Of a DNA stretch of 64,000 bases, positions 5,549 through 63,962 are shown in pieces. The stretch's first letter is position 1; each line of letters begins with the position of its first letter. Position numbers and translations under genes: made by a program. The stretch is taken from contig OX597830.1 in assembly GCA_951406725.2 (NCBI GenBank), forward strand, positions 52,886,001 through 52,950,000. Direction: 5' to 3'. The stretch comes from Octopus vulgaris. Taxonomy: Eukaryota. The notes below the pieces were generated by a model. That model had not been told where the DNA came from, did no database searches, and worked only from the letters and a program-made list of their open reading frames with translations.

Positions 5549-5695
5549 CAGTCTTTACGTAAGTACCTAGGGTAAAAAATAATGTTGCACACACACGCAT
5601 GAGACATGCCTAAGCAGAACGTAAGTGTAGGTGCATACACATACACACACATATATGTATATATATGTATATGTATGTGTGTGTGAGTATATTCC

Positions 5696-5761
<66 letters not shown>

Positions 5762-6148: not shown

Positions 6149-6168
6149 TATATATATATATATATATA

Positions 6169-6560
6169 CAAAATAAGAAAATGGAGAAATACATCGAAAT
6201 CAAATATCAATTACCAGATAATACTCAATCACATACTTTATTAAACCACCACATAAGAAACTATAAGGTTAAACATAATAATGCAGGGTAAAACAGTGTA
6301 CATGAAGGAGTGTACATAAAATAGTAATGTTATACAATAAGTAGAATACATATAATAGAAAATAAATATAAGTACACATAAATATAAATATAAACTATAT
6401 CTTACAGCTGTTTCGGCCATGTAGATAAGCATGTCTCATTTAACTTATATTAGCCATTTATGGTAGGTCAATATGTAGTTATAAATGAGACATTTACAGA
6501 AACATCCTAAGGCCTCTTCGGAGATTACAAATTAGATTACATACATACTTATATAGGTGT
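6169..6560 (-). mobile_element. Penelope-like pseudo-LTR fragment; same family as 38670-39045
   Basis: Reverse-complement homologue of 38670-39045; carries a hammerhead motif; abuts (TA)n. Confidence 0.75.
6399..6525 (-). ncRNA. Type I hammerhead ribozyme motif (CCGAAGA core variant, long stem II)
   Basis: atct-CCGAAGA-ggcc..(atgtctcattta/taaatgagacat)..ggcc-GAAA-C-AGCT-GUA-agat. Confidence 0.75.
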
Positions 6561-6989: not shown

Positions 6990-7079
6990 GGTACTTAAGT
7001 TGAGGCACCAGAATTTAGAATGGTATTATCCATACAATTTCAAAATAAGGTGATTAAACTCACAATAAGCCCTTATTTA

Positions 7080-7315
7080 CACCATAAATTTAAAGGTAAA
7101 AATTTCATCTGGTTTAATACCCCATACAGTTGTACATTATCCACAAACATATACAGAAAATTTATGGCTATTTTAGAAAAAAACTTCCCTACTTCCCATA
7201 GATATAATAGCATCTTTTCATGTAAGACAGTTCGAATCTCATACTCTACTCTTCCCAATATGGATACCATTATAGCTAGATTAAATAAGAAGAATATAAA
7301 ATTAGCCAGTATTGT
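7080..7315 (+). mobile_element. Penelope-like element ORF fragment (region between RT and GIY-YIG, Neptune-like)
   Basis: IWFNTPYS...TNIYRKFMAILEKNFP.SH.Y.SIF...TVRISYS..PNM matches the PLE motif IWFNPP(Y/F)S...HFP...IFN..TVKISYS..PNM. Confidence 0.8.
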
Positions 7316-7316
7316 C

Positions 7317-7356
<40 letters not shown>

Positions 7357-7759
7357 GTCAAGACGATTCGATTGTAAGATATTTTATTTGTTGAACGATA
7401 TTTCAACAGTACGTCTGTCTTTGTCAAGTTCAAAATGAGAAGTAATAAAAATTCAAAATTACAGAAATTTAAGCATAAAGTATGAACGAGAGCAAACAGC
7501 ATCTACACGCTGATGGAATGTCATCTTCAGTTTTTAAGTTACAATTTTATAACAGGCGAAAAGATAAAGACAGAAAAAAACAGAAAAAAGATGACAGAAA
7601 AAAAGGAAAGAAAAAGAGAGAAAGAAGAATATTTAATCAAACAGTTTTGTATAAATTTGATGATATTCGCCTGTCATTCATTCCTAGAGGGCGTGACGTT
7701 AATAACCTGCAAACATATTTCTCCTCATATATTCTGAGAACTGAAAGTGAAGCAGATTC

Positions 7760-12130: not shown

Positions 12131-12316
12131 CAATTATCATTAAGGCAGTGAATAGGCAGAATCTTCAACGCATCAGACAAACTACTTTGTGACGTTTCTT
12201 CTGGATTGTGAAGTAAATTTCTTCATTACACACTCATATTCTACAACTATTTTTACCATTCCATTGAACTCACAATTTGTACAATTTTTTAAATACAAAT
12301 TAACATTTTGTAGTTG

Positions 12317-12555
12317 TATTGTGTCTGGGGAGAGTCATTTCTTTTTGTGCCTTATTATGTAACACACTCACTGGTAAAATTTCCACATTTTTCTTATTTT
12401 TATTGTCCTAAAATAAGAAAAACGTGGAAATTTTACCGGTGAGGGTGTTACATAATAAGGCACAAAAAAAAATTACTCTCCCCAGACACAATAGAATATG
12501 CTTCAACACATGAACTCATATAAACAATCTTGCAAACCAAATCCCCAAACGAAAT
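12317..12555 (+). mobile_element. Fold-back Penelope-like pLTR insertion with 13-bp TSD
   Basis: Inverted arms 12317-12400/12410-12493 plus unique tail; TSD attttgtagttgt at 12305 and 12556; same family as 48231 and 36570. Confidence 0.75.
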
Positions 12556-13819
12556 ATTTTGTAGTTGTTTTAGCTTTTATTTGTGTATTATTTTTTACAT
12601 TTATTTGTTTTAGTGTTTCACTCTGAGGGTCTCATTTTAGTAAGATGGGGATTGGGGCTTAATTAGATAAGGAATAGTGACACTGGGGATCCTATTTAGT
12701 GTCTCCAATATTGCTATTGTAAAGGTAGAAGAATCCATGTTTCATTAAGTACAACTTTTCATAATGGACTTCCTTACAGTTTCCATTCAACCAAATTTGT
12801 CTTTAATCAATGCTAGATTTTCCATGTATTGGTTAACCTGTGAGAAGCTGCTTCCAAATGTCCCTCAAATCACAAATTACCATCTTAAAGAAGAGTAAGT
12901 ACATGTTGAACAATATAGTCCTAGACACACAGAAAAGATGGGAAAGGTTAAGGATGGAAGATCTTTTGATCGTAGATCTACTCAATCAGAGCAAACTGAG
13001 GAAGGGATTAAACAGCAACAACAACAACAACAACAACTGCTATTCAATTTATGTAACAGAGCCTCAATTTATTGAAAATTATAATAAAAAAACACTTGAC
13101 TAAAGTGCTGGACACTGGGATTAAATCCATATCCTGGACAATAAGATTGCGTAGCAAACTTCTTGACATCACAGCAATACCAACACCCAGTCATTGTCCT
13201 AATATCCTCTGCAATATTGACATTCCTTATATTTAATATTGGACATTCCTTATATGTCCACCTCCACAAATGGTCCCCTATAGAAGTGGTGATCTTCGCA
13301 TGGACACTTCAAACTCACAAGGTGTGGAATTTCCGGCAACACTCAAAAACGTCACTTGACTAATTTATTTATAGCCATTATCTATTGTGTCTGCTCCTTC
13401 TTTGAACCTGATCCTCGAACCACATTGCATCATCCACAACCACCACCACCACTACCACCACCACCACTGCTACTACCCTAGCCACTACTAGTATCATCAC
13501 CATTTTAGTATCCATTACTACAACTACTGTTACCAACGCTGCCATCACCTCCTTGACCATGGCAACTGCAATCGTCATCACCACTTTCTCCTCCTCCTTA
13601 CCACAACCACCACCACTGTTATTTTTTATTCCATATTTGTTTGAAATTGAAATTTTTTTTTACTTTTTGCTGCCCTCAACCATTTTGTTATTGTACTTAT
13701 TGCTGTTGTTACTGATGTTGTGTTTGTTGTTGTTACTATTGTTACTTTCTTTTAAATAGTTGATATATTCATTTTTCATTTAAATTTACTCCAGCTTAAA
13801 CTTGAAATTTTAAAAACAA

Positions 13820-14212
13820 CTAGCAGTATTGCCTGGCATTGCTCGGGTTCGTTTCGACCCTTTAGAATTGGAATTTTTGAAAAGTAAAAATTTTGCATTA
13901 TGTAGCTTTTTATTCTCTTTAAGTGAACATTTTTCTGGTTGAAATACACCGAAAAATGGTGACACAGCAGTCACAAAATTGTAAAAAAATAGGTATTTTC
14001 ATAGAAAAAAAGCACCTTTCTAATGTAAATAATTTTTGGTGTTAACATGGTCCGATTTGAATTTTTTCTACTACGGAATGAAGAGCAAGCCTTCTTCTAT
14101 CATACTCTCAATTTTGGTCAACTTGCGCCGGAGGGTCTCAGAGAAGATAGTGTTAGTTGAAGGCTACCAAACCTGCCATACACAGACAACTTCAGCTTTA
14201 TATATATAGAGA
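13820..14212 (-). mobile_element. Non-autonomous Helitron (copies at 48744, 63564)
   Basis: Minus strand A|TC...hairpin (cccgagcaa..cc.gg)...CTAG|T. Confidence 0.85.
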
Positions 14213-14694
14213 TGTGTTTCATCATCTCCTTATACACAGACTTAGGCACAAACATAGACACATAGACACACAAACATAAACACCTACAGTTAAGACAGAT
14301 ATACACATACAAACACACACACATACTCTCTCTCTCTCTCTCTCTCTATTGTAATCACATGGGTGTGATATCACAAGTATTATTTACTTCTACTTCTTTT
14401 CCTATATTTTAACCTTTTTTATTTTTTCTTTCATTTTTCTCTCTTTGAAACGATCCAGGATTTGTCCTACAACTCAGTGTTTATACATTTACATGTGTGT
14501 GTGTATGTGTGTATGCATGTGTGGTGTATGTGTGTGTGTGTGTGTGTGTGTATCTTTGTTATATTTGAACAAAAACTTCTTTTGTTAGGGATTGCCACTC
14601 GCTCTTAGAGAAACGATCCTAGAAAAGATACTTTTTATCCAATCTATCTATCTATCTATATGAACATATACATATATATGTGTGTCTATATATA

Positions 14695-14788
<94 letters not shown>

Positions 14789-14914
14789 TAAATTAGAGAT
14801 AAAACCACTATTAGGCAAATCATACAATGAAAAACTTAAGCCAATACATAAGATTATTTAATTTATATTATTTAAATATATAACAAAATTATTTAAAAAA
14901 TATAATTAATATAA

Positions 14915-14978
14915 CACTACGATCGTTTCATGGCTGTTAATTTCTTTAAATTTTCGAGTTACAGTCATTCATCAGGTG
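14915..14978 (-). ncRNA. Minimal type I hammerhead ribozyme (canonical core)
   Basis: cac-CUGAUGA-atgactgt..acagccat-GAAA-C-GAUC-GUA-gtg. Confidence 0.8.
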
Positions 14979-15026
14979 GTTTAAATATTTAATTGATTAA
15001 ACCATCGCCAAGTTAAATATTTAAAC

Positions 15027-15090
15027 CACCTGATGAATGACTGTAACTCGCAAATTTAAAGAAATTAACAGCCATGAAACGATCATAGTG
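15027..15090 (+). ncRNA. Mirror-arm hammerhead copy (cleavage triplet GUA changed to AUA)
   Basis: cac-CUGAUGA-stemII-GAAA-C-GAUC-AUA-gtg. Confidence 0.7.
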
Positions 15091-15302
15091 TTATATTAAT
15101 TATATTTTTTTAATAATTTTGTTATATATTTAAATAATATAAATTAAATAATCTTATGTATTGGCTTAAGTTTTTCATTGTATGATTTGCCTAATAGTGG
15201 TTTTATTCTAATTTAATATAATATAATATTTTACTATAAAATTGGATTCAATCCTAAATCTGATTTTTCCCTGTAAGTTTGGATTTATTCCCTAATATTT
15301 AT

Positions 15303-15373
<71 letters not shown>

Positions 15374-19015: not shown

Positions 19016-19870
19016 ATATATATATCACTCATGTAAAATCAAGTATATGTCAAATACAGAATGTGAGCTATAAGAATAAAAATGTCTGTGTTTAAAAGTG
19101 ATATATAACAAGAAAAATTCAAATACATATTATTTGCTAGTACTAAAATGGTGATTTGAGGAAAATCACCATTTTAGTACCAGCAAAAAAAGGAAGATAT
19201 GTATTTGAATTCTTCTTGTTATGTATCGCATTTAAACACAGACATTTTTATTCTGATGTTTAATCTTATATGTTTAATCTCACATTCTGTATTTGACATA
19301 TACTTGATTTTACATGATTGATATATATATACTAATTCATATTTATAATGTATGACTTATAAATTTTAATTCTTAATATTACAAAGTATAATTTTTATTC
19401 TTAATTTTTAATTTTTTAATTCTTAACTTTTAATCTTTAATGCTTAATTATATTACTTATTTTTAAAGGGATATAAAATTAGATATATAATATTTTGAAA
19501 TAGAACCTGAAGATGTGTTGGAATAATTGTAAATCTGACGATTGTGTATATGTATTTATATATGTATGTGTGTGTATATATATATATGCATATGGGTATA
19601 CAGTTGTGTATATGTATATATATTTTAATCTTCCAATACTAAAACACGTGTAGTTCCTTCATATTTAATAAATGTAAATATTAACTAAAGTAGGATATAA
19701 CTAATGAAGTATATTATATACCCTGCTGGCAATTGTGGTTATATCCTTTAAGTATTATTTCGTGATGTGCAAACTGATACCATGAGTTTACTGTCAGATA
19801 TACTCATTAAGTTATTTTTGTATTATCTGAAACAGAATACCTACATATCAATGAATCCCCCCAAAATCGA
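19016..19870 (+). mobile_element. Fold-back AT-rich element (arms 19016-19157/19163-19330) with downstream hammerhead
   Basis: Long imperfect palindrome followed by unique sequence containing a hammerhead motif. Confidence 0.7.
19503..19656 (+). ncRNA. Type I hammerhead motif with microsatellite-filled stem II loop; G12 mutated
   Basis: gaac-CUGAAGA-(t)gtgttgga...tccaatac(t)-AAAA-C-ACGU-GUA-gttc. Confidence 0.65.
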
Positions 19871-38669: not shown

Positions 38670-39045
38670 ATACCCCTCCGAAGAGGCCTTATGATTTTTT
38701 GTAAATGTCTCATTTATATCTATATATTGACCAACCATAAAGGGCTAATATTGGTAAAATGAGACATACTTATCTACATGGCCGAAACAGCTGTAAGATG
38801 TAATCTATACTTATATTTATATTTACTTATATTTATATTCTCTTTTATATATATTCTACTTATTATACAACATTACTCGTTTATGTACAATTTTTTATGT
38901 ACATTCCTTTATGTACACTGATTTGTTCTGCTTTTTATATTTAACCCTATAGTCTCTTATGTGGTGGTTTAATAAAGTATGTGATTGAGTATTATCTGGT
39001 AATTGATATTTGATTTAGATGTATTTCTCCATTTTCTTATCTTGT
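38670..39045 (+). mobile_element. Penelope-like pLTR fragment (family of 6169-6560)
   Basis: Homologous to 6169-6560 in the opposite orientation; ends at (TA)n. Confidence 0.75.
38674..38799 (+). ncRNA. Hammerhead motif (CCGAAGA variant)
   Basis: ct-CCGAAGA-ggcc...ggcc-GAAA-C-AGCU-GUA-ag; stem I reduced. Confidence 0.65.
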
Positions 39046-46192: not shown

Positions 46193-46527
46193 ATACATGT
46201 GTTCATATTTTGAGTTCTGTTTTTCCTGTCTATATCACCATGTGTGTGTGTGAGTTAACTTGGAGATTATAACAACCGTCTAAAAGATACTTGTATCCAA
46301 TTAATCCACTGGTGGAGATCAATTGTTATTCATCAATTCTATCTCCATTCTCTGCTTTCATTATATATATATATATATTGAAGTTCATGAATTCATCTGA
46401 CGAAAACGTAATGTTTTCATTAATCAATTAAAGGCGTCGTTAGAAACGGCCGTAATGTTTTCATTAATCAATTAAAGGCGTCGTTAGAAACGGCCGTAAT
46501 GGATTGACTTCCGTACCACTAGTGTTA

Positions 46528-46532
<5 letters not shown>
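46187..46532 (+). mobile_element. Hammerhead-bearing element between (TA)n tracts
   Basis: Unique AT-rich segment bounded and interrupted by (TA)n. Confidence 0.55.
46391..46504 (+). ncRNA. Type I hammerhead with intact core and duplicated 3' half
   Basis: attcat-CUGACGA-a-aacg...cgtt-a-GAAA-C-GGCC-GUA-atg(gat); a 44-bp tandem duplication gives two GAAACGGCCGUA boxes. Confidence 0.8.
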
Positions 46533-47165: not shown

Positions 47166-47234
<69 letters not shown>

Positions 47235-47305
47235 AGTGGCTGTGTCATAAGTAGCTTGTTTACCAACTCCATGGTTCCGGGTTCAGTCCCATTGTGTGGC
47301 CTGTC

Positions 47306-47339
<34 letters not shown>

Positions 47340-47413
47340 GACAGGCCACACAATGGGACTGAACCCGGAACCATGGAGTTGGTAAACAAGCTACTTATGA
47401 CACAGCCACTCCA
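47000..47413 (-). mobile_element. SINE family A copy with an inverted duplication of its head
   Basis: 3' half at 47000-47168; head present twice as a perfect palindrome 47232-47413. Confidence 0.85.
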
Positions 47414-48230: not shown

Positions 48231-48438
48231 TTCTGTTGTTTGGGGAGAGTCATTTTCTTTTTGTGCCCTTAACACACTCACCAGTAAAATTTTCACTTTT
48301 TTCTTACTTTTATTGTCCTAAAATTTTCGTTGCGTCTTGCAACCTTTTCAATAGTTTTGACTCTCCCCAGACACAACAGAATATGCTTCAACACACGAAC
48401 TCATATAAAGAATCTTGCAAACCAAATCCCAAAACGAA
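48231..48438. mobile_element. Penelope-like pLTR insertion (inverted + sense fragment) with ~13-bp TSD
   Basis: IR ..ggggagagtca/tgactctcccc..; TSD acttat(t/g)tacata at 48218 and 48439. Confidence 0.75.
48318..48354 (-). ncRNA. Ultra-minimal hammerhead motif, U3-A8 variant
   Basis: cta-UUGAAAA-g-gttgc-aagac-gcaac-GAAA-AU-UU-tag; palindromic AAAATTTT. Confidence 0.65.
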
Positions 48439-48743
48439 ACTTATGTACATAGATATACACATATGACTATGGTACATACAAAATACAATATGCATATATA
48501 CATGCACATACACAAACTCTTTACGTGCATGCATATATACACATAAATACGACGAGGGTGGATGCCATCCTGGACAGGAATAACTCAAGGCCCCTTCCTC
48601 ATATCTGGTTGTACAGAATCCTTTGTAATATTTTGGTGTCCTTTTGTTACTTGTAAACCGTAATTCAGACATTATCACTGAATATTAATAGCAAAAGCAG
48701 TGACATAAACCTCTTAGGACAAAATTCCTTCTTTATATTACAA

Positions 48744-61680: not shown

Positions 61681-61709
61681 ATTTTATTTTTTATTTTGCA
61701 CATTACTTA

Positions 61710-61821
61710 ATTAAGACTTGGTCCTCTGACCAATCAAAATATGCAAAACAGGCATAAAATACCTGTTTTGCATATTAGCATGAATTAGATATTTTGATTG
61801 GTCAGTGGACCAAGTCTTAAT
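61710..61821. repeat. Fold-back / MITE-like palindrome with internal hairpin
   Basis: attaagacttggtcctctgaccaatcaaaatat / atattttgattggtcagtggaccaagtcttaat. Confidence 0.8.
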
Positions 61822-62083
61822 CCAGTGACTTGGTTTTGGTACAGTTTCTATGATTCAGTGCCTTGCTTTCTAACACCAACCACCTTATAGAATGTACTGG
61901 ATGCATTTTTTGTGGCACCAGCACAATAGAAGTTGCCTTGTCCTTAGCAGGACAAAAGAATCCTTTCAAACCGAATGTTGTCTCTGATCAATTTCCCTAC
62001 TACTTTACATGTAGTTTTACATGTCTCTAGAACTAGGAGGTGAATTTGTAACTGTAACTCATATATATATATATATATGTATA

Positions 62084-62142
<59 letters not shown>

Positions 62143-62198
62143 GCATAATAAGGTAAAAACCAAGGCTGTATAGATATTAGAGCATTTATAGATAGAAG

Positions 62199-62250
62199 GT
62201 CTTACAGATGTTTCTAGGATATTAATTAATAATATCCCTTAATTGGAGAC
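62199..62250 (-). ncRNA. Mirror-arm hammerhead, decayed core
   Basis: gtct-CCAATTA-ag-ggatatt..aatatcc-ta-GAAA-C-AUCU-GUA-agac. Confidence 0.55.
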
Positions 62251-62294
62251 AGTGTGAGAGGAAACTAACTATGACTTAATTTTTCCTTCACACT

Positions 62295-62336
62295 GTTTCC
62301 GATGAAGAATTAATATCCTAGAAACAGCTGTAAGAC
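62295..62336 (+). ncRNA. Hammerhead motif (CCGAUGA variant), stem II partly deleted
   Basis: gttt-CCGAUGA-...-GAAA-C-AGCU-GUA-agac. Confidence 0.65.
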
Positions 62337-62551
62337 CTTCTATCTATAAATGCTCTTATATCTATACAGCCTTGGTTTTTTTATCTTATTACGCAAAAAA
62401 CTTTTATATACACACGCTGACATAGAACCAACGTTGAACCCTTTATTCGCAATATTACCGAATCTGGAACTTAACTTACGGTCTTATTCAGCATTACCTG
62501 ACACCTTTGGGTCTCAATGACACCATTATCTCTTATAACCTCAACTTCTTG

Positions 62552-62587
<36 letters not shown>

Positions 62588-62591
<4 letters not shown>

Positions 62592-62890
62592 AAATATTAG
62601 GGAATAAATCCAAACTTACAGGGAAAAATCAGATTTAGGATTGAATCCAATTTTATAGTAAAATATTATATTATATTAAATTAGAGATAAAACCACTATT
62701 AGGCAAATCATACAATGAAAAACTTAAGCCAATACATAAGATTAATTAATTTATATTATTTTAAATATATATCAAAATTTTTTTAATAATTTTGATATAT
62801 ATTTAAAATAATATAAATTAATTAATCTTATGTATTGGCTTAAGTTTTTCATTTTATGATTTGCCTAATAGTGGTTTTATCTCTAATTTA

Positions 62891-62897
<7 letters not shown>
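62588..62897 (-). mobile_element. Fold-back pLTR, same family as 14781-15305, with shorter arms and no hammerhead
   Basis: Tail 62588-62668, arms 62669-62779/62788-62897; (TA)n on both sides. Confidence 0.85.
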
Positions 62898-62926
<29 letters not shown>

Positions 62927-63552: not shown

Positions 63553-63563
63553 TAATATATACA

Positions 63564-63956
63564 CTAGCAGTATAGCCCAGTGTTGCTCGGGTTTGTTTTC
63601 TTTTCAATCCTTTAGAATTGGAATTTTTGAAAAGTAAAAATTTTGCATTATGTAGCTTGTTATTCTCTTTAAGTGAACATTTTTCTGGTTGAAATACACC
63701 GAAAAATGGCGACACAGCAGTCAAAAAATCATTAAAAAATAGAGATTTTCATTGAAAAAAAAAACACCTTTTTGATGTAAATAATTTTTGGTCTTAACAT
63801 CGTCCAATTTGAATTTTTTCTTCTACGGAATGAAGAGCAAGCCTCCTTCTATCACACTATCAATTTTGGTCAACTTGCACCACATGGTCTCGGAGGAGAT
63901 AGTGTTAGTTGAAGGCTACTAAACCTGCCACACACACACAGACAACTTCAGCTTTG

Positions 63957-63962
<6 letters not shown>
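63564..63962 (-). mobile_element. Non-autonomous Helitron
   Basis: Third copy of 13820-14212. Confidence 0.85.

Follow-up and report, generated by a model that had tools for sequence, protein, structure and literature searches.

Penelope-like elements (PLEs) are retrotransposons whose genomic copies are marked by strong 5' truncation, by an inverted, 5'-truncated copy joined to the 5' end and by a bias towards microsatellites (PMC8557442). Their tail of 30-40 bp is often found at one end only, and Hydra-clade PLEs combine a preference for (TA)n with hammerheads proximal to the 3' end; the Hydra list includes one entry with an inverted 5'-truncated copy and one from Octopus bimaculoides (PMC8557442). 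Proteins of this clade are marked by RWK, DKT and CxCX5C motifs and by the lack of CCHH. The same paper names the origin of the tandem and inverted structures of PLEs as unresolved. In the anole, the PLE protein, a predicted dimer, cuts and extends both target strands, and its reverse transcriptase (RT) has two start positions, which delimit the tail and show no homology to the target (PMC11167929).

Here we describe two palindromic inserts, copies A and B, in a 64-kb window of Octopus vulgaris DNA (the whole stretch analysed), which is AT-rich and dense in microsatellites. Both are non-coding, have no linked RT and very probably arose separately, each by insertion of a PLE's non-coding 3' end. 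Their layout is already known, so they are not a new system; their value lies in the opportunity to test a mechanism from sequence alone.

Results

The two inserts share one anatomy (Table 1). Copy B (62589-62900) leads from (TA)n through a 78-nt unpaired tail, a 113-nt arm, an 8-nt loop and the inverted arm to (TA)n again. Copy A (14779-15305), to which copy B is inverted in the window, has these parts in reverse order, with arms of 214 and 213 nt, a 20-nt loop and an 80-nt unpaired tail; the preliminary description had put the arms at ~110 and ~210 bp, close to the measured lengths. All four insert junctions lie in (TA)n. In both copies the unpaired 3' tail is one-sided and a head-to-head inverted, 5'-truncated copy is attached, and the two tails match except for a small indel adjoining (TA)n. 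Both outer arms abut (TA)n at the identical position (n = 2), within a 5-nt TATAT ambiguity, which bears out the earlier statement that the arm stops at the same internal point in each copy. No target-site duplication was readable at either copy, no ORF start was seen in the tail, and the tail folds no better than shuffles (z -0.68), which leaves a special tail structure unsupported. Copies were collected from the 64-kb window only, where the family has two members; BLAST of A and B against the window returned no third copy, bar short TA-adjacent matches, and the tail motif matched 0 loci in prokaryotic genomes. Two smaller features touch the tail. A 14-nt AT-rich direct repeat brackets it (15224-15237 and 62586-62599), identical by eye at 13 of 14 positions with the end of copy B and at fewer in copy A, and at 5688-5700 a 13-nt match to the tail end stands beside a (TA)32 tract, as a tiny fragment or by chance.

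Table 1. Coordinates of the two inserts, their (TA)n targets and the hammerhead motifs
Feature	Position	Strand	Remark
(TA)n target left of copy B	62553..62588	.	
Copy B one-sided 3' tail, 78 nt, distal end (site 1)	62589..62666	-	matches tail of copy A
Copy B tail-bearing (inner) arm, 113 nt, RNA sense on minus	62667..62779	-	orientation via hammerhead in copy A
Copy B loop, 8 nt, colinear with tail-less arm; 3-nt ATT/AAT microhomology at turn	62780..62787	+	against native sequence in copy A
Copy B tail-less (outer) arm, 113 nt, ends at site 2; final 5 nt common with target	62788..62900	+	
(TA)n target right of copy B	62896..62923	.	
Pure (TA)n run left of copy A; array begins near 14666	14757..14783	.	
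Copy A tail-less (outer) arm, 214 nt	14779..14992	-	
Copy A loop, 20 nt, flanked by two 12-nt palindromes	14993..15012	.	polarity not determinable
Copy A tail-bearing (inner) arm, 213 nt	15013..15225	+	
Copy A one-sided 3' tail, 80 nt	15226..15305	+	
(TA)n target right of copy A	15306..15346	.	
Type I minimal hammerhead motif, intact: CTGATGA, 39-nt stem II region, GAAA, palindromic CGATCG, TA	14918..14975	-	
Second hammerhead motif, CpG-type change in stem III	15030..15087	+	

Each arm of copy A carries a hammerhead motif, which the preliminary description missed, as it did the class of the element. A strict scan of the window matched these two sites only (mean of 0 in 50 shuffles), and a relaxed scan gave five matches at four loci, while none of 200 shuffled windows had any; the descriptor was compared with PMC4209133. 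The motif orients the RNA: the 3' ends of the two arms point away from the centre, with the unpaired segment as the 3'-most part. Between the predicted cleavage site and the end of the tail lie 218 nt, and between it and the short end 133 nt; the arms of copy B turn back downstream of the hammerhead position. Stem II of copy A does not exceed shuffles in stability (fraction 0.44), stem I comprises 3 bp and the motif lacks the usual G10.1-C11.1 pair; the two stem III palindromes could pair as a dimer, at a modelled -12 kcal/mol. Rfam returned no hammerhead family for two hammerhead regions and, for the whole window at E up to 10, no hammerhead among the 150 matches listed of 360, which were all below the gathering score and were mostly miRNA models on microsatellites. 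Such below-threshold miRNA matches also lie at 14948-15060. Across the window, four of five hammerhead inserts (15013, ~62277, 38676, 46378) seem, by eye, to start within about 40 nt above the ribozyme core, and the fifth (6523) may reach about 170 nt above it; an RT stall or a short template could produce such a common start, which is subject to biased detection.

Our reading of the inserts as PLE 3' fragments follows from the inverted 5'-truncated copy, the one-sided tail, the (TA)n targeting and the hammerhead, which at motif level lies on the sense strand of the terminal region. Membership of the PLEs is probable, not proven, no RT or endonuclease gene being linked in the window, and an autonomous parent and a non-autonomous derivative are indistinguishable from these 3' fragments. 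The Hydra clade fits best, by hammerhead position and (TA)n target, although the (TA)n preference seen at 4/4 junctions is common to Hydra and Naiad (PMC8557442) and so is not diagnostic. We rejected the Naiad clade, which is without the canonical hammerhead whereas copy A has the motif; a reading by eye of Naiad_Ovul's consensus, and of the preceding record in its 3' part, gave no match to the family. A non-LTR retrozyme requires head-to-tail tandem hammerhead units and was set aside for copies that are inverted, not tandem, as was a MITE or other TIR transposon, which requires inverted repeats at both termini where one terminus here has 78-80 unpaired nt. In the PMC8557442 supplement text covered here, neither motif search nor reading found a match to published octopus PLE consensuses, and family motifs of 10-19 nt gave no relevant match there, where line breaks could hide matches. 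The architecture is already known, and the family is apparently undescribed among the PLE families compared.

Within each copy, the arms share variants. Over the 113 columns common to all four arms, 3/3 informative sites separate the arms of A from those of B (p = 0.037 under three equally likely splits) and none separates outer from inner arms, compared with an expectation of about 0.004 copy-grouping sites from parallel mutation; two further sites are single-arm changes. These are exactly the three copy-specific variants that the preliminary description had reported as common to both arms, and the clustering of left arms with left arms, looked for in the two copies of the window, occurs at 0 sites. 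The shared variants exclude independently inherited left and right arms, and on this evidence both arms of each copy derive from one source sequence. It is likely that the arms were made during the insertion concerned, as two 5'-truncated copies joined head-to-head. The earlier proposal that the inverted arm is made anew at each insertion holds as far as the single source goes, and PLEs are described as carrying inverted copies formed at insertion (PMC8557442); with n = 2, gene conversion or a later duplication fits too. Differences persist between outer and inner arms, four in 214 columns in copy A (one of CpG type) and one in 113 in copy B, and these five unconverted positions argue against full or strong arm homogenisation. 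Between the copies, the tails have 0 substitutions in ~77 nt and the arms three fixed differences in 113 nt, which is not significant (Fisher p = 0.27). The differing turn-around points may be original, or may reflect a central deletion that shortened a once longer palindrome in copy B.

We also considered A and B as a duplicated block and rejected this, since the single 400-nt repeat common to their flanks is wrongly oriented and the flanks are otherwise unrelated. That dispersed repeat (13819-14206 and 63563-63962, 88% identical, near both copies) is presumably Helitron-like.

The short end, where the outer arm meets its target, has 5 nt of TA microhomology. In a rough A/T-only nearest-neighbour model of the duplex, whose ranks depend on the bulge penalty, the end used ranks 6 of 268 positions in A and 6 of 165 in B with the standard penalty (top 2-4%); a lenient penalty lowers it to rank 18 (A) and 17 (B), the top positions then including some about 10 nt off in the same TA-rich segment. 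A perfect TA run of 7-8 nt about 100 nt earlier ranks first in the model, yet was passed in both copies, and alternating runs of at least 5 nt number six in A and four in B. Annealing at the TA-rich segment may contribute to the short end; alone, it does not predict the base used. The proposal that such annealing ends the arm is therefore weakly supported, agreeing with the microhomology and the rank of 6 and disagreeing with the better TA run that was passed and with the loop polarity of copy B. Elsewhere, a site like this short end has been tied to a second RT start (PMC11167929) or to an endonuclease cut (PMC8557442). Given that the anole enzyme has two tail-bounding starts and extends both strands, a second start site would be the simpler reading.

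Loop polarity is readable at one junction, that of copy B, with the sequence of copy A as the native reference. The minus strand of B is native from the outer (TA)n through arm and loop and then turns on a 3-bp ATT/AAT pairing, which gives the loop the polarity of the tail-less arm, opposite to that predicted for a tail-primed fold-back. Because the loop is colinear with the tail-less arm, the folded strand would be the tail-less one, and since the fold-back of a tail-less cDNA cannot supply the tail, a second cDNA from the other target end would be needed.

Other repeats of related form occur in the window. An older head-to-head palindrome at 62141-62396, 150-200 nt from copy B, belongs to a second hammerhead family (motif 62299-62332) and has (TA)n on its left and at most a few extra nt on its right. 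A third hammerhead family is un-inverted (38676-39045, plus strand; 6168-6523, minus strand), its members being 86% identical with a common 3' end on (TA)n and a well-folded stem II of 100 nt. The fourth motif (46378-46530) lies between two (TA)n tracts and has its GAAA/stem III half repeated through a perfect tandem duplication of 44 nt. At 19016-19330, an old head-to-head palindrome has a 4-5-nt loop and short TA runs at both ends, with no hammerhead found, and 61700-61831 is a decayed 55-nt inverted repeat, single-copy in the window. The perfect palindrome at 47233-47412, which has (TA)16 at its centre and (TA)n on its flanks, comes from a repeat found at five other places, which we take to be SINE-like, and is either a (TA)n-mediated inverted duplication or an assembly artefact. 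A further repeat has a fold-back version at 12314-12496 and another copy at 48232-48445 with only a 24-bp inverted repeat; the former resembles the outcome of a template switch at a short inverted repeat. Finally, at 7050-7304, with an (AAT)n tract after it, lies a fragment of a Hydra-like PLE protein that is unlinked to copies A and B. This frame has one database relative, an Octopus bimaculoides protein (66% identity), and by eye it resembles the Hydra thumb/linker alignment; Pfam found nothing above cut-off in the 6999-7391 frame or its homologue.

Discussion

Based on these results, we propose, tentatively, that the leading candidate for the origin of both inserts is priming at both cut (TA)n ends with one of the cDNAs folding back. 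The enzymatic steps that we infer would be as follows. A GIY-YIG endonuclease would cut both strands of (TA)n and, because this target is self-complementary, would leave two equivalent 3' ends, each of which could prime cDNA on the element RNA. One cDNA would begin at the distal start and include the tail, and the other at the proximal, TA-rich start, without the tail. Being of the same polarity, the two could not pair together; one would instead fold back on a few bases (in copy B the tail-less one, with 3 bp and an 8-nt loop), and the new sense strand would then pair with the other cDNA and be completed through the tail. The combination of a PLE 3' end, head-to-head joining at insertion and two-ended priming is our best explanation of the whole, although it falls just short of what we would call probable. 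The wider statement, that PLE inverted repeats arise when a dimeric RT-endonuclease primes both (TA)n ends at two tail-bounding starts and the fold-back of one cDNA seals the insertion, is possible but doubtful. In the open-access literature, the scope of our search, we found neither a proposal of two-ended priming nor a loop-polarity test for PLEs.

The head-to-head arrangement of the second hammerhead family near copy B (62141-62396) was counted in favour of two-ended priming. Against it stand the number of copies (two, with polarity readable in one), the fact that the polarity in B could also result from a later central deletion, a tail twice the usual 30-40 nt, the anole RT starts without target homology as against the TA microhomology here (PMC11167929), and the fold-backs without PLE features in the same window (12314-12496, 47233-47412).

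Other routes lead to a similar product. In the one first proposed for these inserts, a tail-primed cDNA folds back, copies itself and then pairs with (TA)n by its 3' end, at the TA-rich segment, and the centre of copy B is trimmed later. cDNA snap-back by an R2 protein before 5' joining has been seen in cells (PMC11371274), and the 5-nt microhomology at an end within the top 2-4% of positions under the standard bulge penalty agrees with annealing; the loop of B, however, has the reverse of the predicted polarity and demands the extra deletion, several alternating runs of at least 5 nt (six in A, four in B) were available, the 7-8-nt run was passed, and the lenient penalty moves the site to rank 17-18, so that we consider this route unlikely. 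The published alternative makes the palindrome by self-priming on an antisense template, after which the endonuclease resolves it and trims the tail on one side, with site 2 as a cut site that mimics (TA)n (proposed in PMC3846280 and PMC8557442). It allows either loop polarity, and the arms of A do start at a 12-nt palindrome, but an antisense transcript cannot be shown from this sequence and the limits of the tail have since been mapped in vitro to positions where RT begins on sense RNA (PMC11167929); we regard it as improbable here.

The non-PLE fold-backs in the window imply that host processes can make such structures, and a single-arm copy might have been duplicated after insertion by template switching during replication or repair, or its arms homogenised by gene conversion. 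Indeed, one non-PLE repeat occurs as a fold-back whose parent has no more than a 24-bp inverted repeat, a perfect palindrome around (TA)n is built from the SINE-like piece, and un-inverted hammerhead copies exist. The identical outer end in two inserts and the persistence of five unconverted arm differences nevertheless make a host origin very unlikely, the divergence of tail versus arm (p = 0.27) neither showing nor excluding conversion. We give almost no credence to an inherited palindrome, whether MITE-like or from a palindromic master, or to an assembly artefact: assembly can go wrong at long palindromes that lie between (TA)n tracts, and B is derivable from an A-like palindrome through a central deletion, but with 78-80 nt on one side only the ends do not form terminal inverted repeats, the arms carry age-type differences and the layout recurs at two unrelated sites.

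Priming at both target ends, if true, would jointly explain inverted pLTRs, one-sided tails and microsatellite targeting, and the loop polarity of genomic copies would record which cDNA folded back. Where copies are short, young and bounded by (TA)n, the ancestry of their arms, their end points and the polarity of their loops are countable genome-wide, and such counts discriminate between two-ended priming, simple snap-back and antisense self-priming. It should also be noted that short PLE palindromes could be mislabelled as MITEs or miRNA hairpins.

Among the known systems, twin priming by L1 inverts the 5' part of the element without duplicating its 3' end. Its likeness to our proposal is that the second target end primes internally (10.1101/2024.12.14.628481), and it differs in that both primings here would lie near the 3' end, while the R2 snap-back shares cDNA fold-back at 5' junctions (PMC11371274). 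Non-LTR retrozymes are likewise short, non-coding, PLE-derived and equipped with type I hammerheads but are defined by head-to-tail tandem units, where copies A and B are head-to-head (10.64898/2026.07.22.740005). Penelope/Poseidon elements (Adineta Pen2a, PMC3846280; anole PAc, PMC11167929) are closer, with head-to-head inverted pLTRs, an optional one-sided tail, palindromes at the turn and two RT starts bounding the tail; their tail measures about 30-40 nt against 78-80 nt here, and the TA microhomology at the short end is found here. Copies A and B are known from 3' fragments without an ORF to place them, and their hammerhead, with its longer stem II region, differs in copy A from all those in the table of the PMC8557442 supplement; even so, they resemble the Hydra-clade PLEs (Hydra-1_Obim, Penelope-13_HM) in (TA)n targeting, in the inverted 5'-truncated copy and in a type I hammerhead 100-200 nt from the 3' end (PMC8557442).
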